Source of the DNA: a virus
Lineage: Duplodnaviria > Caudoviricetes
Reading direction: 5' to 3' (one strand)
Virus record (IMG/VR): IMGVR_UViG_3300017739_003809
Location: 1 to 56,804 of that record
Length of the DNA stretch: 56,804 bases
Positions 2,621 through 11,064 of this stretch are shown piece by piece; position 1 is the stretch's first letter, and the number at the start of each line of letters is the position of its first letter. The translations under genes and the position numbers were made by a program. Below the pieces are notes generated by a model. The model was not told where the DNA came from, ran no database searches, and saw nothing but the letters and a program-made list of their open reading frames with translations.

Positions 2621-3175
2621 ATGAAAAAGTTATTATTATTATTTTTAACAGTTACGGTTGCAACTTTATCGCAAGCCCAATGTAGGTATAATTTTCATTT
2701 TGGTTATACAAACTATATTACTAAAGGCCAAACTAATTTAAATGGATTTAGAGCAACCTACTGGCCTAGACAATACAGATGGAATAATTGGAATACCTGG
2801 GGTTCTAATAGTTTAGCAAATATGGGTAGAACTACTAATCGTTATGAAAATAATAATGATGTAGGTTTATTTGGTGATTTTGTATTTACAGTACCAAATG
2901 AAGATAAATCCCAGGAATACCAAGCAGCTGTTTTAGGATTTATTATGCCCATATTTCCCCCAGCATTTAATATGCATTTAGGGTTTGGGACTAAATGGAA
3001 TAATGGTTTAGAAGATGAATTTCAATCTGAATTTATATCAACTTATGGAATAACTTTTATTGCACCTAATAGGGGTATAACGTTATCTGTAGGAAGACAA
3101 ACAAGGGCTAGAGAAATGTTTGCAAGAACTGGAGCTAATACAACTATTGGGATAGGATATACTATAAGACGATAA
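2621..3175 (+). CDS. exported protein, probable small outer-membrane beta-barrel
   Basis: SPI-type signal (MKKLLLLFLTVTVATLSQA|Q); alternating beta-strand pattern; ends IGIGYTIRR. Confidence 0.55.
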   Translation: MKKLLLLFLTVTVATLSQAQCRYNFHFGYTNYITKGQTNLNGFRATYWPRQYRWNNWNTWGSNSLANMGRTTNRYENNNDVGLFGDFVFTVPNEDKSQEYQAAVLGFIMPIFPPAFNMHLGFGTKWNNGLEDEFQSEFISTYGITFIAPNRGITLSVGRQTRAREMFARTGANTTIGIGYTIRR

Positions 3176-3177
3176 AG

Positions 3178-4932
3178 ATGCAAAAAGGAGCAGCGTATTG
3201 GATGGATCTTCGTCATTTTGATGATGAAGATCCTATCTTTTTAGCCCAAGTACAAAGGGGAATTACAAATTTTGTTAAGATTCTCACAGGAAAAGATATT
3301 CCTGTTGAGTATGCCACATCAGGTGATTCAATGACCGATGGAGAAACGGTATATATCGCATCAAATCTTAGAGAGGATACAATAGATTACACAGTGGGGT
3401 TAGCTCTTCATGAAGCTTCTCATGTTTTATTAACAGACTTTGCATACCTTAATAAAGAACGTGGGAAAGTATTAGAAACTAAATGGAACATACCTAAGGA
3501 AGATACTGATAATGTGTTTACTTTAATTAATTTTGTTGAAGATAAACGTATAGATCATTATGTTTATTCAACAGCCCCTGGGTATCAATTTTACTATGAA
3601 GAACTTTACCGTAAATCTTTTTATAATCAAATTGTAGATGATAATCTTAAAACAGATAATTTTACTACGCCAACTTGGGACGCATATTTTTTTAGAATAA
3701 TTAATATATTTAATCGTAATTCTGATTTAGATAAATTACCCGGGTTAAAAGAGGTACGTGATTTACTCACATATAATCAAATTAGTAAGTTAAAGTCTAC
3801 CCAGGACAGTATAAAAACTGCTGTTGAAATATATAATATTATTAAACAATATATCCAAGAAGAAGAAGAGGAAGAAGATGGAGAGAATAAACCATTAAAT
3901 AACCAAGAATATAAAACACGTGAACAGGTAGAACGCCAAAAGAATTTTATTAATTCACAATATAGAAAAAAACGTGTCCATAAAAAGGTAAAGGAACAAG
4001 TTAATAAGCTAGCTAATTCAGATACTAAAATTAATAATTATTCTTTATCTCAAAATACATCTATCCCCACTTTAATTACTAAAGATTGGGAAGAATATTT
4101 TACAGGTCCTTTTGGCCATAATGAAGAAGCAGTTAATAAGGGATTATTTTTAGGAAAACAACTTCTTAAAAAACTTAAAGTTAGAAATACGGTTAAGAGG
4201 GATATTTTTGAAAATCAAAAGAAAGGTAAATTAAATTCTTCTAAATTGTACCAGGCTCCCTTTAATGAAAATTTATTTTATAGGATAGAGAAAGAAGACT
4301 ATAAAAACACTTTTATTCACATATCATTAGATCTTAGTGGTAGTATGAGAGGAGAAAAATTAATACAAACCATCCAAACAGCAGTAGCTATATCTTATGC
4401 TGCTTGTAATATAAAAGGGTTTGATGTAGAAATTTCTTTAAGAGGTACTATTGATCCTAATAAATCCAAGTCTATGCATTCGTCTAATCAAGTTCCTGTA
4501 TTAGCCTATGCCTTTAACTCTAAAAAAGACTCTATAAAAAAATTACAAAGATTTAAAAAACTTATTACGTGTGGTATGACCCCGGAAGGTATTTGTTTAG
4601 ATCAAATTAGAAAAGATTTACCCTCTCCTTCCTATTATCAAGAAGTTTATTTAGTAAATATATCAGATGGGTTACCTAATATAAGTTCGGCCTCTTATAA
4701 TTTTAGTACTGCTATTAACCATACTGCTAAAGTAGTTAATGAATATAAAAAAGATAATATTGGATTATTAAGTTATTTTATCCATGATACCTGGGATAAA
4801 ACACAAAAGGCTGAGGGGACTTTTAAAACAATGTATGGGAAAAGTGCTAAATATATTGATATTAATAATGTATCTTTAGTAGCTAATACAATAAATAATC
4901 TTCTCCTTTCTAATACTATTAAGGTTTGTTAA
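3178..4932 (+). CDS. VWA-domain protein with N-terminal HExxH metallopeptidase-like region (CobT/MoxR-partner type)
   Basis: HEASH and VEDKRID in the N-terminal part; MIDAS DLSGS, TPEG and ISDG in the C-terminal part; acidic linker. Confidence 0.8.
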   Translation: MQKGAAYWMDLRHFDDEDPIFLAQVQRGITNFVKILTGKDIPVEYATSGDSMTDGETVYIASNLREDTIDYTVGLALHEASHVLLTDFAYLNKERGKVLETKWNIPKEDTDNVFTLINFVEDKRIDHYVYSTAPGYQFYYEELYRKSFYNQIVDDNLKTDNFTTPTWDAYFFRIINIFNRNSDLDKLPGLKEVRDLLTYNQISKLKSTQDSIKTAVEIYNIIKQYIQEEEEEEDGENKPLNNQEYKTREQVERQKNFINSQYRKKRVHKKVKEQVNKLANSDTKINNYSLSQNTSIPTLITKDWEEYFTGPFGHNEEAVNKGLFLGKQLLKKLKVRNTVKRDIFENQKKGKLNSSKLYQAPFNENLFYRIEKEDYKNTFIHISLDLSGSMRGEKLIQTIQTAVAISYAACNIKGFDVEISLRGTIDPNKSKSMHSSNQVPVLAYAFNSKKDSIKKLQRFKKLITCGMTPEGICLDQIRKDLPSPSYYQEVYLVNISDGLPNISSASYNFSTAINHTAKVVNEYKKDNIGLLSYFIHDTWDKTQKAEGTFKTMYGKSAKYIDINNVSLVANTINNLLLSNTIKVC

Positions 4933-5143: not shown

Positions 5144-5150
5144 TATGTAT
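5144..5150 (+). promoter_or_regulatory. putative late promoter TATGTAT
   Basis: Variant of the recurrent motif, ahead of the 5204-11064 operon. Confidence 0.5.
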
Positions 5151-5203
5151 TAGTGTCTTAATAAATTAAATAGGTTGCTTTAAAATTAATGGAAGTAATC
5201 TAT

Positions 5204-5488
5204 ATGGCAAAAGAATTAAATGAAGATACGGGTTTTACAGTAAGTTTAAAAACCCTCGCAGGAATAGGAATTTCAATGGCCACAGTTATCAGTATGTGGT
5301 TTGTCCTGCAGGCTGATATAGCCGAAGCAAAAGAACTCCCAGCTCCACCTGATCCCGAAATTACAAGGATGGAATTTGACATGAAGGACCAATTAGTCCG
5401 TCAAACTATTATGTCAACCCAAGAAGATGTCTCAGAACTTAAAGAAGATCTTGACCGCATCGAAGCTAAAATAGATAAATTAAAGTAA
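5204..5488 (+). CDS. single-pass membrane protein with coiled coil
   Basis: TM segment LAGIGISMATVISMWFVL followed by heptad C-terminus; second ATG (5204) preferred over 5189. Confidence 0.7.
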   Translation: MAKELNEDTGFTVSLKTLAGIGISMATVISMWFVLQADIAEAKELPAPPDPEITRMEFDMKDQLVRQTIMSTQEDVSELKEDLDRIEAKIDKLK

Positions 5489-5490
5489 AA

Positions 5491-5862
5491 ATGAAATACT
5501 TAGTTGCAATTATATCGTTTTTACTTATTTCTACTAATGCAAGTAAACCCTTACTAGAAGAAAACTCCCCATTACCAACATGTGGAGATGATATATGTGT
5601 TGTACAGTTTAATGCAGCATTTAATTCAGCAAATGAAGTAACTTGGTTAAATGAATTAACCGATTGTTCTACTACTACAGTAGATATCATGGCTGATCCA
5701 AGTTTACCCCAAGATTATAAAATTGTTGTTGTACCTACTATTCTAATTTTAGAAGATGGAGAAGAAGTAGCGAGGTTTCAGGCTAACATTATGATGCAGA
5801 TGGAAGCTACCCGCAAAGAGGTACAAGGATCCATAGACGAAATCATAATGAGCAAATTTTAA
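5491..5862 (+). CDS. exported thioredoxin-fold protein lacking a canonical CxxC
   Basis: Signal peptide; VVQFNAAFN in place of FxAxWCxxC; YKIVVVPTILILEDGEEVARF is the Trx cis-Pro strand motif. Confidence 0.7.
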   Translation: MKYLVAIISFLLISTNASKPLLEENSPLPTCGDDICVVQFNAAFNSANEVTWLNELTDCSTTTVDIMADPSLPQDYKIVVVPTILILEDGEEVARFQANIMMQMEATRKEVQGSIDEIIMSKF

Positions 5863-8800
5863 TGAAACATTTATTAACTTCCCTTTTATTACTTATTGGC
5901 CTTACAAGTTTAGCACAACCTCCTATTTTTGAAGGTTGTACTGATCCTTCGGCCTTAAATTTTAACCCAATAGCTATAACACCCCCTAGTGGTCTTATTG
6001 TACCCGGAGGTAGTTGTAATCAAATTTCATGGAACCAAAATTACTTTGGTATTAGTCCTGAAGATTACAATGCAAACCCTTCATGGTGGGAGGCAGGTAC
6101 AGAAATTTTTATATCAGGACAACAATGGTTTGTAGATGGTGTTAACTTTCCTACAAACTGTAATGCTCCCGCTATATTAGTATATGTTGTACCCACAGCA
6201 GATCAGGCTGATGGGTTTACAGGAACATTTATACCAGGTCTTAATGTAAATGCCATAGTTGGAGAAACCTGGCAAAGTAATGGGGTATGTGAATACCCCT
6301 TTCCTGGCTGTACTGATCTAGAGGCAATTAACTTTAACCCAGAAGCTACATTTGATGATGGGAGTTGCATTGATAGTTGTGAAGGGGTACAAAATTTAAT
6401 AGGTGAAATAAATTGTTTTTCATTCTTTCCTAACCAAGGTGAAGTAAGTGTTAGTTGGGATCCAACTTTTCCTGCTTGTAATCCTATAGGTTTTTACGTA
6501 GGTTTAGATCTTGAAGACTTACAATTTATACCTTATGGTCCTTGGTTTGGAAACTATTTTTATGGTTATACTGAATCTACTCCGGTATCTAGTGATGAAT
6601 ATTATTTTATAGTTGAATCCCCAGGAGGGGTTTTGGATACCTTAATATTAGATAATCCTAACTGTGGAATAGGTTGTACAGATCCTATGGCCTCTAATTA
6701 TAACCCATTTGCAGGAATTGAGGATGAATTTAATCCCTCTTGTGAATATGGTTATGTATCGGAATGTGGAACTGATAGTACACAAAATGTTTACGTAAGC
6801 ATTACAGGTGATACTTTTTCCCAATATGAAACTAGCTGGGAAATATTAACTACGGATAGTGTACCTCAAATATTAGCAAGTGAAGAGATAGGTTTTTATA
6901 CTACTGCAGGAGTTACTGTAACTACTACGTATTGCATACCATTAGGTGTAGAATTTACATTTAATATCTATGATAGTTATGGTGATGGACTTGCGGGTTC
7001 TACAACGGGGGGTTCGGCTGATGGTGATGTTTTAATAACTACAGAGTGTGGTGATACTATTTATACTATATTACCTTTTGAGGGCCAAAATCCTAATTTT
7101 GGTTATGGGGCAACTAGCGTTCCTAACTTATTAAATCAATGCCCCCCAGATAATCCTCCTTTTGGATGTAAAGATCCCGATTATTTAGAATTTAATTCTT
7201 TAGCTGAAAATAACGATCAGTCTATGTGTTTAACCTTAGCTGTTCCGGGTTGTATTGATCCTAATATGTTTAATTACAATCCTGAAGCTAATACTATGGA
7301 TTTAATCCCATCTTGTGATTATACTCTAATGTTATTTGATGGAGGAGGGGATGGATGGGATAATTCATATTTAGGTGTTATCCAAGATGGAGAACCAATT
7401 GGTGCTTTTACCTGTACCGAACAAGAAGCTTTATACACAATAAACATCAGTTCACTTACTCATATTGAACTTACTTTTTATGATATATCGTTTGGTGGGT
7501 TTTTTGGAGAAGGTGGAACTACAACAGATGTTTCGCAATGTGGGTTTAAGTTAATTAATTCAAATGGTCAAGTAGTTTATCAAAAAGGTAATAATCCTTG
7601 GCTTAATCCTATTGAACCCGGTGAAACCTATACTCCCTACTTAAATTGTGGTAACTATTGTGTTCCTTTTATTGAAGGTTGTATAGATGAAGGAGCATAT
7701 AATTTTGATAGCTTAGCTAATACTGCAGATGAAAGCTGCGTTTACTTCCCTGGATGTACTAATCCCTTATATTTAGAGTATTTTGAGCAAGGATTTACAG
7801 CGGATGTAAATGATGGGTCTTGTAGTGTAGAAGTTGTAAATGGGTGTACGGATGAGGAAGCATTTAACTACAATCCAGAAGCTAACTTAGATAATGAAGG
7901 ATGTATTCCCGTACTACTAGGTTGTACAGATGAAGAAGCTTATAATTTTGATGTAAATGCTAATACTAATGATGGTAGTTGTGAACCATTTATATTTGGT
8001 TGTACTGATGCTACATCATTTAATTATAGTGAAGAAGCAAATACTGATGATAATAGTTGTATTTCTATAATATTTGGGTGTACAGATGAATCCCAATTCA
8101 ATTATGACCCATCAGCAAACACAGAATATGATCCTTCAAATTGTGAGCCCTTTATTTATGGTTGTTTAGATGAATCCGCATTTAATTTTGATGCACTAGC
8201 AAACACACAATTATTTGGTTCTTGTATACCTGTCTTGTTGGGCTGCACTGATGAAACAGCTTTAAACTATAATGAACTAGCAAACACAGATGATTTATCT
8301 TGTATTCCAGTATTACTGGGATGTACGGATCCTACGGCTACTAATTATAATGAATTAGCAAATACTGATGACGAATCATGTATACCCTTTATATACGGCT
8401 GTACTGATTTAACAGCATACAATTATAATGTGTTAGCAAATACTGATGATGGAACTTGTGAACCCATAGTATTAGGTTGTACAGATATAGAAGCTTACAA
8501 CTATAATGAACTAGCTAATACAGAAGATAATTCATGCCTTCCCGTAGTATTTGGTTGTACAGATCCTACAGCATTTAACTATAACATTGAAGCAAATACT
8601 GACAATGGATCTTGTGAAGAAGTAATATTTGGGTGTACCGATGAAACAGCATTAAATTATGACCCCGAAGCAAATACAAATAATGGATCATGTACCGAAG
8701 TAGTAGAAGGATGTATGGATCCCCTAGCACTTAATTATAATGAACTAGCTAATGTTGAGGATGGTAGTTGTATAGATGCTATTTATGGTTGTACTGACTC

Positions 8801-9413
8801 AACTGCTTTTAACTATAATGAATTAGCAAACGCTGATAATGGTACATGTATAGATGTAGTTGAAGGTTGTACAGATCCATCAGCATTTAATTACAATCCA
8901 GAAGCAAATACTGAAGACTTTAGTTGTATTGAAATAGTATATGGTTGTACTAATCCACAAGCGGCTAATTATGATGAATTAGCAAATACAGACAATGGTA
9001 CCTGTGAAACAGTATATGCTAATTGTACAGATCTAGTAGTAGAAACTTATAACTTATTAGGATTTGAAAGTGAGTGTTTTGCTTGGGTAATTGATGTTAG
9101 TCCAAGTTGCTGTAATAATGAATGGGCCGAAGGGTGTCAAACTTTATATAATTATTGTGATGAAAATACAGTAACTAATGTAGAAGAATTTGGCGAAACT
9201 CAAATTATAGTATTCCCTAACCCAACAAGAGACCGCATAAATATCGCAAGTAACTTACGTATAAACGCAGTACTCTATAATTCCATAGGACAGCCCGTAT
9301 TACGAGAAACTAACGTAAATAGTTTAGATTTAAGTCAATTTGAATCGGGTATTTATAATTTAATTCTAACTTATGATAACCTTAAGTTTACTAAAAAAAT
9401 TATTAAACAATGA
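5862..9413 (+). CDS. large Cys-rich GCTD-repeat surface protein with signal peptide and T9SS type A C-terminal sorting domain
   Basis: Signal MKHLLTSLLLLIGLTSLA|Q; about 22 GCxD repeats; DSYGDG and DGGGDGWD motifs; C-terminus VFPNPTRDRINI...LYNSIGQ...LDLSQFESGIYNLIL...TKKIIKQ. Confidence 0.9.
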   Translation: MKHLLTSLLLLIGLTSLAQPPIFEGCTDPSALNFNPIAITPPSGLIVPGGSCNQISWNQNYFGISPEDYNANPSWWEAGTEIFISGQQWFVDGVNFPTNCNAPAILVYVVPTADQADGFTGTFIPGLNVNAIVGETWQSNGVCEYPFPGCTDLEAINFNPEATFDDGSCIDSCEGVQNLIGEINCFSFFPNQGEVSVSWDPTFPACNPIGFYVGLDLEDLQFIPYGPWFGNYFYGYTESTPVSSDEYYFIVESPGGVLDTLILDNPNCGIGCTDPMASNYNPFAGIEDEFNPSCEYGYVSECGTDSTQNVYVSITGDTFSQYETSWEILTTDSVPQILASEEIGFYTTAGVTVTTTYCIPLGVEFTFNIYDSYGDGLAGSTTGGSADGDVLITTECGDTIYTILPFEGQNPNFGYGATSVPNLLNQCPPDNPPFGCKDPDYLEFNSLAENNDQSMCLTLAVPGCIDPNMFNYNPEANTMDLIPSCDYTLMLFDGGGDGWDNSYLGVIQDGEPIGAFTCTEQEALYTINISSLTHIELTFYDISFGGFFGEGGTTTDVSQCGFKLINSNGQVVYQKGNNPWLNPIEPGETYTPYLNCGNYCVPFIEGCIDEGAYNFDSLANTADESCVYFPGCTNPLYLEYFEQGFTADVNDGSCSVEVVNGCTDEEAFNYNPEANLDNEGCIPVLLGCTDEEAYNFDVNANTNDGSCEPFIFGCTDATSFNYSEEANTDDNSCISIIFGCTDESQFNYDPSANTEYDPSNCEPFIYGCLDESAFNFDALANTQLFGSCIPVLLGCTDETALNYNELANTDDLSCIPVLLGCTDPTATNYNELANTDDESCIPFIYGCTDLTAYNYNVLANTDDGTCEPIVLGCTDIEAYNYNELANTEDNSCLPVVFGCTDPTAFNYNIEANTDNGSCEEVIFGCTDETALNYDPEANTNNGSCTEVVEGCMDPLALNYNELANVEDGSCIDAIYGCTDSTAFNYNELANADNGTCIDVVEGCTDPSAFNYNPEANTEDFSCIEIVYGCTNPQAANYDELANTDNGTCETVYANCTDLVVETYNLLGFESECFAWVIDVSPSCCNNEWAEGCQTLYNYCDENTVTNVEEFGETQIIVFPNPTRDRINIASNLRINAVLYNSIGQPVLRETNVNSLDLSQFESGIYNLILTYDNLKFTKKIIKQ
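7677..9005 (+). repeat. tandem coding repeat, about 17 contiguous ~26-aa units (GCTDxxAxNYNxxANTDDGSC)
   Basis: Degenerate ~78-nt periodicity inside the 5862-9413 CDS. Confidence 0.9.
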
Positions 9414-10453
9414 AAAAGCTTTTAATTACTTTATTATGTTTTACACCCTTTTTATTACAAGCACAACAGCTTAAAGAATGGGGTCAACAACAATTAAAAT
9501 TTGCTACTTTCTATACAGCAGTAACTGGTAATAATTCATTAGCAGATGTAAGTATTTATTCTATAAATCCTACTACGGGGGTTTTAGAAGAAAATATTGA
9601 ATCTACTCCTTTTGATTATACTTTAGCTTTTGGGGTTAGAAAAATTGCACGTTTGGATTATGAAAATAGGAAAAATGTATTTTATAATGGTACTGAAACA
9701 TCAGTTTCGGATGCTGCCACTGTAGGTAACGTAGAGGGCTTAGAATATTTATTTGAATTTGACTATAAAAGACAACAAGGAAGTAAATTCGTTGATCAAC
9801 AACATTTTTTAAGATATGTACATGATCATTGGATTTTAAAAGTAGAATATGTTCAAGATGGGTTTGCTGATTTAAGATATTTTGAAGCATCTCAACGCTA
9901 CAGATATAACATAGCAAAAGAATTTTCTTTAAACGTTGGCTTAGTACAACGTTTTTCTGAACCCTATGGATTTGATCCCCTATCTGAGTTAGCGGGAGCT
10001 GATTTTACAAACATAGCTATTGAACAAGGTTATGGTACTAATTTTGAAGGAGAATGGCTTAACCCTAGTGGAGATATAATTGCTGAAAATAATATAGTAT
10101 GGAATGCTGTAGCTCTTCCTAGTGTATTAAATGAATATGTAGATCAAGAAAGATCTTTACTCCCATACCAGTGGAATCACTCATTAGTAATAGGATATGA
10201 TTATTACCATTACACTAAATCATTTTGGTTTCATTCTTGGGCTAGTGTATTACCACTTCACGTAAGTGCTAAAAATGAATACTCATATACTAATTTTGTA
10301 GATGGTAATACTTGGTTTGATTACACAGGTGGGTTAATTTTAGGATGGCAAGTAAATAAAAGATTAGGTCTTTTCTCAGAAGGAAAATACCATAAGTACT
10401 GGAATCGCGCATGGCATGATTTTTCAGTTGGTTTTAACTATAGAATAATTTAA
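9410..10453 (+). CDS. putative outer-membrane beta-barrel protein
   Basis: Signal peptide ending LQA|Q; aromatic-rich alternating strands; terminal strand FSVGFNYRII. Confidence 0.7.
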   Translation: MKKLLITLLCFTPFLLQAQQLKEWGQQQLKFATFYTAVTGNNSLADVSIYSINPTTGVLEENIESTPFDYTLAFGVRKIARLDYENRKNVFYNGTETSVSDAATVGNVEGLEYLFEFDYKRQQGSKFVDQQHFLRYVHDHWILKVEYVQDGFADLRYFEASQRYRYNIAKEFSLNVGLVQRFSEPYGFDPLSELAGADFTNIAIEQGYGTNFEGEWLNPSGDIIAENNIVWNAVALPSVLNEYVDQERSLLPYQWNHSLVIGYDYYHYTKSFWFHSWASVLPLHVSAKNEYSYTNFVDGNTWFDYTGGLILGWQVNKRLGLFSEGKYHKYWNRAWHDFSVGFNYRII

Positions 10454-10465
10454 AACAACAAAATT

Positions 10466-10684
10466 ATGGCATTTAAAGATATTTTTAAAGACGAAAACGA
10501 TATTAACGAAAAATCAGTAGTTGGTTTTTCAGCATTTACCATTATGGTAGTATTTGCTATAACTGATTTAGCAACAGGTTATTTTGGGCAAGATTTAGTA
10601 ATTAATGAAGCTATTTATAACTCATTTGTATTTGTAACCTTAGGTAGTTTTGGCATAGCAGGATTAGAAAAATTTGCTAAATAA
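10466..10684 (+). CDS. small two-TM membrane protein (holin-like topology)
   Basis: Two hydrophobic segments and a charged C-terminus (EKFAK). Confidence 0.6.
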   Translation: MAFKDIFKDENDINEKSVVGFSAFTIMVVFAITDLATGYFGQDLVINEAIYNSFVFVTLGSFGIAGLEKFAK

Positions 10685-11064
10685 TGTATGAATATAATGC
10701 TGTGTTAGATAGGGTAGTTGATGGTGATACAATAGATGTTACTATTGATTTGGGGTTTAATGTTTGGAAAAAAATAAGAGTCCGAATGGAAGGTATTAAT
10801 ACCCCTGAATCTCGAACTAGAGATTTAGAAGAAAAAAAACGTGGTTTAGCTGCAAAAGATAGATTAATAGAAATTTTAAAATTTAACGATAATAAATGTA
10901 GATTAAAAGTTTCTGGAGTAGGAAAATATGGTAGAGCCTTAGCCACTGTTTTTGTAGATTCTCTTTCCGCCTTAAATGGAAAGGATGGTATTACATTAAT
11001 TGATGTAAATAAACAACTTATAAAAGAAGGTCACGCAGTTGAATATTGGGGGGGAAAACGGTAA
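10684..11064 (+). CDS. thermonuclease (staphylococcal nuclease-like)
   Basis: RVVDGDTID, RMEGINTPE, GKYGRAL, VNKQLIKEGHA motifs. Confidence 0.9.
   Translation: MYEYNAVLDRVVDGDTIDVTIDLGFNVWKKIRVRMEGINTPESRTRDLEEKKRGLAAKDRLIEILKFNDNKCRLKVSGVGKYGRALATVFVDSLSALNGKDGITLIDVNKQLIKEGHAVEYWGGKR

Follow-up and report, generated by a model that had tools for sequence, protein, structure and literature searches.

Positions 5189 to 10684 of the 56.8-kb DNA stretch analysed here (IMG/VR virus record IMGVR_UViG_3300017739_003809, 56,804 nucleotides; hereafter the window) hold five consecutive genes, coding for an inner-membrane coiled-coil protein (cc99), an exported protein with a thioredoxin (Trx) fold, a large type IX secretion system (T9SS) cargo protein, a predicted outer-membrane beta-barrel and a small protein with two transmembrane helices (tm72). 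These genes, and two parts of the cargo gene, lie as follows:

5189-5488, + strand: cc99, inner-membrane coiled-coil protein of 99 amino acids (aa), from the open reading frame (ORF) call and the alignments of its relatives.
5491-5862, + strand: Trx-like protein, 123 aa, an exported thioredoxin fold with CxxC replaced by N-x-x-N.
5862-9413, + strand: cargo, 1183 aa, T9SS type A.
7680-9005, + strand: tandem array of 17 two-Cys units in the cargo gene, from Cys positions and a motif scan.
9210-9410, + strand: type A C-terminal domain (CTD) of the cargo (TIGR04183, 45.1 bits on DNA).
9410-10453, + strand: barrel, 347 aa, a phage-only outer-membrane beta-barrel with 14 predicted strands.
10466-10684, + strand: tm72, 72 aa, two transmembrane helices and a charged C-terminus, a holin-like candidate.

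An earlier note on this DNA had seen here five tightly coupled genes, and they are real: all five lie on the + strand, with a 2-nt gap between cc99 and the Trx gene, a 1-nt overlap between the Trx and cargo genes, a 4-nt overlap between the cargo and barrel genes, and a 12-nt gap before tm72. Our analyses suggest, with a probability of roughly one half, that the locus is composite: the barrel, the cc99 coiled coil and the Trx fold (hereafter the trio) would form, together with tm72, a lysis-linked set, which has been joined in one phage lineage by a surface protein exported through the T9SS. We infer the functional steps of this reading from features that were observed directly, namely gene content, protein families, export tags, co-occurrence, lysis linkage and the one-lineage distribution.

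The window is a phage fragment, and its closest cultured relative is Flavobacterium phage immuto. It codes for a large terminase, portal, prohead protease, baseplate wedge, primase and ThyX. Among the GenBank phage records the nearest is Flavobacterium phage vB_FspM_immuto, a myovirus of 160 kb, whose terminase shares 58% identity with that of the window. Completeness was estimated at ~38% (CheckV), and no tRNA genes were found in the window. Since immuto is the nearest cultured phage, the host was taken to belong to the Flavobacteriia, and the window is read as part of an uncultured marine myovirus of these bacteria.

The second gene of the set had been described as an exported thioredoxin fold devoid of CxxC, a description that the family profile confirms. 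As a single sequence the protein scores 20 bits against PF00085, below the cut-off of 23.5, and the profile of its 81-member family matches 247 solved thioredoxin-type sequences at E<=1, the best of them at 7.4e-11. In this alignment the W-C-G-x-C of thioredoxins falls on W-N-x-x-N; P82/T83 (the cis-Pro-Thr pair) are invariant, F40, N45, N48 and the C-terminal F123 are near-invariant, and the N-terminus is hydrophobic in all 81 members. The phage family and the thioredoxins (PF00085) share the fold, by profile, and the cis-Pro loop, and differ in that the phage protein has N-x-x-N at the redox site, is exported and ends in a near-invariant Phe. No conserved Cys was found among the 81 members, and the protein therefore cannot make or shuffle disulfides.

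The barrel, which the earlier note had proposed as an outer-membrane candidate, is borne out as such by its model and by the folds that it matches. The AlphaFold2 model (81 sequences) has a pLDDT (predicted local distance difference test) of 79.4 and shows 14 strands, with a helical insert of 70 aa separating strands 9 and 10. VIA ranks outer-membrane barrels from many unrelated families highest, with Z scores of 8-10.9 (CymA 10.9, EstA 10.6), and its Foldseek matches are outer-membrane barrels as well. A signal-peptide-like N-terminus is present in 80 of 81 barrels, all signal-peptide calls in this work being made with a crude N-terminus rule of our own and not with SignalP. By sequence, the barrel has no match in Pfam, NCBIfam, PHROGs or the sequences of the PDB, Pfam searched at E<=10 giving only chance matches. 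The most conserved motif of the family (G-x-R-K-I-x-R-x-x-Y-E ... G-T-E) occupies residues 79-109, in the segment that joins strands 4 and 5 (window ~9644-9736), of which residues 82-106 were modelled with low confidence. Given the usual topology of such barrels, this segment probably faces the periplasm, and it may be a candidate motif for binding a periplasmic partner.

The barrel family is large and viral. A profile search of 1.84 billion representatives returned 411 representative clusters at E<=0.001, more than 2000 close homologues are present in metagenome protein sets, and the 30 Atlas clusters nearest to the barrel are all viral; the nearest named ones (autotransporter, Phage_OMP and OmpG, score 0.93-0.94) are leads only. 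An unnamed viral protein of 342 aa in BFVD, A0A516LKJ4, resembles the barrel with a TM score of 0.69 (E 1.4e-25, 23% identity), and it may be a family member, which would hint at a member in a deposited virus genome. In tblastn searches of the GenBank phage records, the window barrel, two distant barrels and cc99 gave no match, and the searches neither found a barrel family member nor placed A0A516LKJ4 in a genome. When the region was compared with the GenBank phages by blastn, nothing matched but the immuto tm72 gene and a single short piece of a marine single-cell virus.

The membrane coiled-coil protein of the earlier note was also recovered. In alignments of 42 and 77 relatives, cc99 begins with a short cytoplasmic part, crosses the membrane with one transmembrane helix and, after a Pro-rich linker, continues in the periplasm as a coiled-coil helix of ~40 aa, with the conserved pattern MWFxLQADIxEAKELP...RMEFDMKD...KID. 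Its relatives start at the second ATG, at 5204, which is the likely true start from the alignments and would give a protein of 94 aa. No Pfam, NCBIfam or PHROG match was found for cc99, and its matches among solved structures are coiled coils only, at E>0.03, which we take as noise. The 99-aa 'FliL-like' protein immuto_76, which lies at the same relative place in immuto, was considered as its counterpart and ruled out, as the two share no similarity; nor was any similarity found between cc99 and 57-aa neighbours. The fifth protein, tm72, is the 2-transmembrane protein that had been predicted; its two hydrophobic helices are followed by a C-terminus ending in ...EKFAK(K), and it matches no family and no holin model in Pfam or PHROGs.

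For the cargo, too, the earlier description holds: the 1183-aa protein has a signal peptide, a type A CTD and about 22 repeats with two Cys each. The search with TIGR04183 that had been suggested as a check gives 42.1 bits at its C-terminus (residues 1117-1183; cut-off 23), where PF18962 gives 37.1 bits (cut-off 27), and the signal peptide covers residues 1-19 (...GLTSLA|QPP). Between them lie a variable head (residues 20-606, with 5 scattered two-Cys units and 4 unassigned domains), the tandem array (607-1048) and a Cys-rich knob (1055-1099). The protein has 64 Cys, and we counted 22 two-Cys units, 17 in tandem and 5 scattered; the tandem ones repeat with a period of 26 aa, spaced as Cys-x19-Cys, around the motif G-C-T-D-x2-A-x-N-Y-N-x2-A-N-T-D-D-G-S-C. 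Residues 20-294 and 295-606 have no Pfam match at E<=1, an Atlas search with residues 295-606 gave nothing usable, and phmmer against the PDB returned weak CTD matches only. Among 30 cargo homologues, 27 score above the TIGR04183 cut-off, one falls just below it and two have no match. The family ranges from 663 to 1269 aa with widely varying repeat numbers, and some relatives carry an N-terminal MAM domain that is absent from the window cargo. Signal-peptide-like N-termini are present in 39 of 39 cargos, and 38 of the 39 full-length ones show a hydrophobic stretch followed by a small residue and Gln. As a rule the barrel and Trx families, too, have such a small residue plus Gln, which agrees with the 'Q rule' that passages of PMC10367356 give for signal peptides of Bacteroidota. 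These motifs support the view that the cargo carries both Bacteroidota export tags, a Sec signal and a type A CTD, secretion by the T9SS itself being predicted.

A second cargo gene is cut by the start of the contig:

1-837, + strand: 3' part of another T9SS cargo gene, whose ORF is open at the start of the contig (TIGR04131, PF13585).

Two-Cys units of the same 26-aa kind occur in it at least 6 times, and a CTD of type B (TIGR04131 45.6 bits; PF13585 E 2.7e-15) comes after them. Five related loci (L011, L012, L015, L021 and L023; L numbers designate the loci compared in this work) have full-length versions, of 685-1107 aa, at a distance of a few kb from the module. By their sorting domains, these phages encode cargo for both CTD types, although no PorP/SprF-like gene was found in the window.

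How are these genes distributed? Close relatives of the barrel, at 45-97% identity, were found in 79 viral contigs. A cargo homologue (BLASTP) stands beside the trio in 67 of these 79 loci, and the other 12 end where the cargo would lie; the synteny check suggested in the earlier note thus finds the genes co-conserved. Three gene orders occur, which are cyclic permutations of one another: cc99-Trx-cargo-barrel, cargo-barrel-cc99-Trx and barrel-cc99-Trx-cargo. In L074 and L079 a gene of ~1950 aa lies between the cargo and the barrel. At least 587 more viral stretches encode distant barrel members; from these, 80 loci were retained, and 7 kb to either side were examined. All three trio genes are present in 68 of these 80 distant loci. 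A profile of our own for the CTD detected no CTD protein within 7 kb of the trio in any of the 80, TIGR04183 matched none of 26 neighbouring proteins from the distant loci, and proteins sharing a few two-Cys units occur in only 4 of the 80. Two barrels 27-30% identical to that of the window lie on contigs of metagenome-assembled genomes (MAGs) filed under Woesearchaeota (L090 and L091), each directly downstream of a 3000-aa protein that has no CTD, one copy of which includes a DNA-methylase stretch; in L091 the barrel is again followed by cc99 and the Trx gene. These are probably mis-binned contigs of a different phage group.

When 132 barrels were placed in a quick maximum-likelihood tree, a branch with an SH-aLRT support of 100% set the cargo loci apart, with 56 rows on their side (51 with a CTD, 5 cut off or under threshold) and 76 rows, none with a CTD, on the other. 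The branch between them is long, with 1.1 changes per column, a gap that may be partly a sampling effect, because the two sets were sampled by different patterns. On this one-lineage distribution, the cargo appears to have joined a single lineage of the trio and to have stayed there. Judged by its occurrence across viral sequences, the trio is a phage-only, old and self-standing set, separate from the cargo.

The same data bear on whether the region is host DNA mis-assembled into a viral contig, as the earlier note had allowed. The cargo CTD is a host-type sorting signal, as this explanation would have it; against it, the G+C content is even along the whole window, nearly all genes lie on the + strand, and the 79 other viral contigs hold the same genes between the same phage genes. 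In addition, among 185,579 species genomes the barrel family occurs in only 10, all of them MAG contigs from unrelated taxa, which we read as mis-binned phage. The two-Cys repeat array was found in just one of 201 genomes sampled from the family Flavobacteriaceae, and that genome is a MAG that also holds a trio locus (L084), the repeat match being on a different contig of that MAG; the L084 locus is likewise read as a mis-binned phage contig. An origin from host DNA is thus refuted as far as the data go, and its probability is virtually nil.

The earlier note had proposed that the phage displays the cargo through the host T9SS with a folding helper and an outer-membrane anchor of its own. Spelled out, the four proteins would form one T9SS display system, in which the Trx protein would chaperone the cargo in the periplasm, the barrel would hold or guide it at the outer membrane, and cc99 would anchor the helper. 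Several observations agree with this. The start and stop codons overlap from the Trx gene to the cargo and from the cargo to the barrel, the cargo is kept beside the trio wherever the related loci extend far enough, and the cargo loci form one clade on the long branch of the barrel tree. Moreover, strand 9 and the helical insert contain 10 of the 12 barrel positions at which each clade conserves a residue of its own (binomial 2e-5). Other evidence opposes it. The model is weakened because trios exist without the cargo, as in all 80 distant loci. The Trx fold has no conserved Cys with which to serve a disulfide-rich protein. The cargo is not next to the barrel in the order barrel-cc99-Trx-cargo, nor in the two loci with the ~1950-aa gene in between, and no fused forms of the barrel were found among longer proteins, which is weak evidence. 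Finally, the window has no match to the PorP/SprF model, and PorV scores no better against the barrel than unrelated barrels do.

In the SprB/SprF pair of Flavobacterium johnsoniae, a cargo with a type B CTD works with a cognate PorP/SprF-like barrel. The locus studied here is similar in that a large surface-protein gene is directly followed by a gene for an outer-membrane barrel; it differs in the type A CTD of its cargo, in the barrel family that also occurs without cargo, and in the PorP/SprF model TIGR03519, which has no match in the window at E<=1 and none among 16 barrels scanned at E<=10. PorV, the T9SS shuttle barrel for type A cargo (PDB 6H3I chain F), has 14 strands like the phage barrel, and the two superpose with a root-mean-square deviation of 5.5 over 172 residues. 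Its VIA Z scores (7.7 and 8.3) lie within the spread of unrelated outer-membrane barrels and are no higher than those of CymA and EstA, and PorV has no sequence match to the phage barrel. We therefore consider the single display system unlikely. What stands of the proposal that the phage uses the host T9SS for display with helpers of its own are the export tags, with the CTD present in 27 of the 30 homologues too; the part that does not stand is the role of the Trx protein and the barrel as helper and anchor of the cargo, given the cargo-less trios and the missing Cys.

What, then, does the trio accompany in the genomes that have no cargo? Of the 80 distant loci, 55 have an endolysin-family or holin-family gene no more than 3 kb from a trio gene, and in 31 the distance is at most 300 bp. 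In a PHROGs scan of 115 neighbouring ORFs from 23 loci, a gene annotated as lytic was found within three genes of the trio in 18; in L101, L104, L132, L156 and L165 no PHROGs lysis gene lies within that distance. The neighbours of cargo-bearing trios were scanned in the same way: 95 ORFs were picked from 20 loci and 55 of them were run against PHROGs, homologues of window genes already scanned and near-duplicates being left out. Directly upstream of the cargo, L030, L035 and L029 have an amidase or endolysin gene; in L086 such a gene comes directly after that of the Trx protein. The gene orders read amidase-cargo-barrel-cc99-Trx-holin in L030, endolysin-cargo-... in L035 and endolysin-tm72-cargo-... 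in L029. A holin of the phrog_3427 type directly flanks the set in L030, L034, L038, L041, L054 and L060, a weaker holin is present in L064-L071, and an endolysin gene follows the Trx gene in L062 and L063. In some cargo-bearing relatives the cargo sits between endolysin and holin. The window has one lysis-family gene:

1956-2564, + strand: endolysin-like protein (phrog_3000 / phrog_33083).

Homologues of this gene adjoin the trio in L010, L098, L105, L116 and L149. The lysis neighbourhood extends to tm72, which is 51% identical to immuto_79, whose gene is directly followed by those for a GH19 endolysin and a Phage_holin_4_1 holin. In L029 and L084 tm72 adjoins endolysin genes, and it is present in 25 of the 80 distant trio loci. 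From its helices and its company, tm72 looks like a holin-like candidate that often travels with the trio and lysis genes.

Linkage to lysis genes can be explained in other ways. The trio could be a sensor chain for the timing of lysis, comparable to the T4 RI antiholin, or could serve superinfection exclusion by stopping incoming phage at the envelope, in either case with no rupture of the membrane and with its genes beside the lysis genes only as fellow late envelope genes. T4 RI and Sp are periplasmic regulators, and the trio has parts that would suit such a task: all are exported, one of them is predicted to span the outer membrane, and the holin-like tm72 is often adjacent. The same counts of lysis linkage (55/80 and 18/23 loci) fit this explanation equally. 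On the other side, searches of Pfam, NCBIfam, PHROGs and solved structures found no similarity to a known antiholin or exclusion protein, and the very high conservation of the barrel across phage lineages is no less in keeping with a structural task than with a sensor. We regard such a regulatory or exclusion role as quite unlikely.

The cargo, in turn, could be an unrelated 'moron' in a permissive spot among the late genes, tied neither to the trio nor to lysis. In favour of this, its length, repeat number and head domains vary widely, and the genome carries another cargo gene, of CTD type B, at a different place; passages of the Cryophage study (PMC7468147) likewise report T9SS cargo genes that are variable. 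This explanation does not account for a cargo that has been kept beside the trio through three gene orders and down to a barrel identity of 45%, nor for its place between endolysin and holin in relatives, and we consider it very unlikely.

We propose that the lysis-linked trio, with tm72, is the core of the locus and that the T9SS cargo is its later companion. In this composite arrangement, cc99, the Trx fold and the barrel would form a chain from the inner to the outer membrane. The Trx protein, which has lost the redox Cys and kept the peptide-binding cis-proline, may be the middle piece of the chain. As infection ends, the trio would work alongside holin and endolysin, and would most likely carry out, or help in, the last step, the breach of the outer membrane; by analogy it is possibly doing a spanin-like job at lysis. 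The cargo gene would have been added in one lineage and retained next to the trio through several changes of gene order. Its product would be made late, alongside the lysis genes, and would pass through Sec first and the host T9SS second, to set a stiff, disulfide-clamped repeat stalk with variable heads on or off the surface of the infected cell. The stalk may bind something there, by which it would mask receptors or promote adhesion.

Two-component spanins, such as λ Rz/Rz1, consist of an i-spanin, with an N-terminal transmembrane helix and a periplasmic coiled coil, and an o-spanin, an outer-membrane lipoprotein with a lipobox Cys; the known i-spanins are much longer than cc99. The trio resembles them in the transmembrane helix and periplasmic coiled coil of cc99, in having an outer-membrane partner, and in the position of its genes beside holin and endolysin genes in relatives. 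It is unlike them in having a 14-strand barrel in place of the lipoprotein, a third protein, the periplasmic Trx fold, that is always present, and a much shorter coiled-coil protein, with no sequence similarity. No lipobox was found in the barrel and Trx families, whose signal peptides end in A/G/S-Q with no conserved Cys, and no lipoprotein gene was sought elsewhere.

A number of points weigh against the composite reading. The spanin analogy is one of position and topology only, since the barrel is no lipoprotein and cc99 is far shorter than the i-spanins. Spanins are annotated in some Bacteroidota phages, according to passages of PMC10367356 and PMC10136315, and the phages with the trio may therefore have ordinary spanins. 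The linkage to lysis is weaker nearer the window: in the near set a recognised lysis gene lies within 3 kb in only 24 of 80 loci, many of which are short; the window yielded neither a holin of the phrog_3427 type nor a phrog_894 endolysin; and the only lysis-family gene of the window is 2.6 kb upstream, with three genes between. The separation of cargo and trio can also be questioned, because a CTD gene could lie beyond 7 kb in the distant genomes. Besides, the cargo standing beside the trio in three gene orders and the switches between barrel clades fit a real link of cargo and barrel better than a chance neighbour. The switched positions hint, on the modelled barrel, that it changed where a surface partner could touch it, and this signal is no more than a hint, because the groups are kin and the topology is inferred.

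The composite reading also has a bolder version. The trio might be a new, three-part apparatus for outer-membrane breach in Bacteroidota phages, in place of lipoprotein spanins, into which the T9SS repeat protein has been recruited as a working fourth part. In that case the cargo might engage the host SprA translocon or the surface insert of the barrel at lysis; alternatively, it might coat the dying cell and so block re-adsorption of the progeny. We put this version forward as an improbable one.

The surroundings of the set add some further observations. The late-type motif that the earlier note had placed before the first gene could not be verified. The sequence TATAAATA, which we take to be the T4 late-promoter consensus, occurs 21 times across the window (21.8 expected) and is absent from the + strand near 5144-5188. 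The stretch upstream of cc99 shows no conservation and no shared motif among 13 relatives, and sigma-70-like sites are not in excess (26, with 34.7 in shuffles). One subgroup of relatives (L007, L010, L011, L012 and L015) has a conserved hairpin, AAAGGTTTC...GGAACCTTT, followed by T-rich sequence, directly before cc99. From its sequence, this hairpin looks like a terminator ending the preceding gene, and it is absent from the window.

Upstream of the set, a gene at 2621-3175 (+ strand) codes for a 184-aa protein with a signal peptide ending in ...SQA|Q and a C-terminus ...GYTIRR. It looks like a candidate for a small outer-membrane barrel; it has no match in Pfam, NCBIfam or PHROGs, and a homologue 40% identical lies at the same position in L005. 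It is followed by the gene for a 584-aa protein (3178-4932, + strand) with an acidic linker and a DLSGSM motif, similar to a metal-ion-dependent adhesion site (MIDAS), whose sole match is phrog_1576, of unknown function. This gene is kept upstream of the module in close relatives. Downstream, a gene for an endonuclease of the staphylococcal-nuclease type (PF00565, phrog_452; 10684-11064, + strand) begins with a 1-nt overlap on the tm72 stop codon, and a gene of this type follows tm72 in all close relatives. In marine metatranscriptomes (three runs from two studies), short contigs 90-99% alike cover parts of all five genes, and they are no proof of transcription, of strand or of co-transcription, as DNA may be present; one further run, whose RNA origin is merely guessed, also has such contigs over parts of the five genes.

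How much of this was known? A full-text literature search, supplements aside, found no paper describing the trio. T9SS cargo genes carried by phages are in print: passages of Bellas et al. 2020 (PMC7468147) describe type A cargo genes in 'Cryophage' that vary between phage variants, and passages of de Jonge et al. 2019 (PMC6949934) describe proteins with T9SS sorting domains on crAss-like contigs. The statement in the earlier note that no characterised phage system has this design consequently holds for the trio and fails for the phage-encoded cargo. As those passages present them, the Cryophage and crAss-like cargos share with the one described here a phage gene with a type A CTD that presumably uses the host T9SS. 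The Cryophage cargos are, in the same passages, enzymes or PA14 proteins on variable islands, whereas the cargo of the window is a stalk of two-Cys repeats, fixed beside an envelope trio and lysis genes, with a type B sibling in the genome.

The passage of the outer membrane at lysis has been little studied for the phages of Bacteroidota, which are among the most abundant marine and gut bacteria. The trio is a concrete and testable candidate for this breach, because it is phage-only, lies beside holin and endolysin genes, and is represented by hundreds of clusters and at least 587 viral stretches. It may also provide tools, namely a barrel that would insert in Bacteroidota outer membranes and, from the cargo, a 26-aa disulfide-clamped stalk module. 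A type A cargo in the lysis neighbourhood and its type B sibling suggest, from their sorting domains, that these phages would use both branches of the host T9SS late in infection. These findings bear on the interplay of phages and hosts at the cell surface, where such proteins may take part in receptor masking and in aggregation on particles, and on the flow of carbon in the sea.

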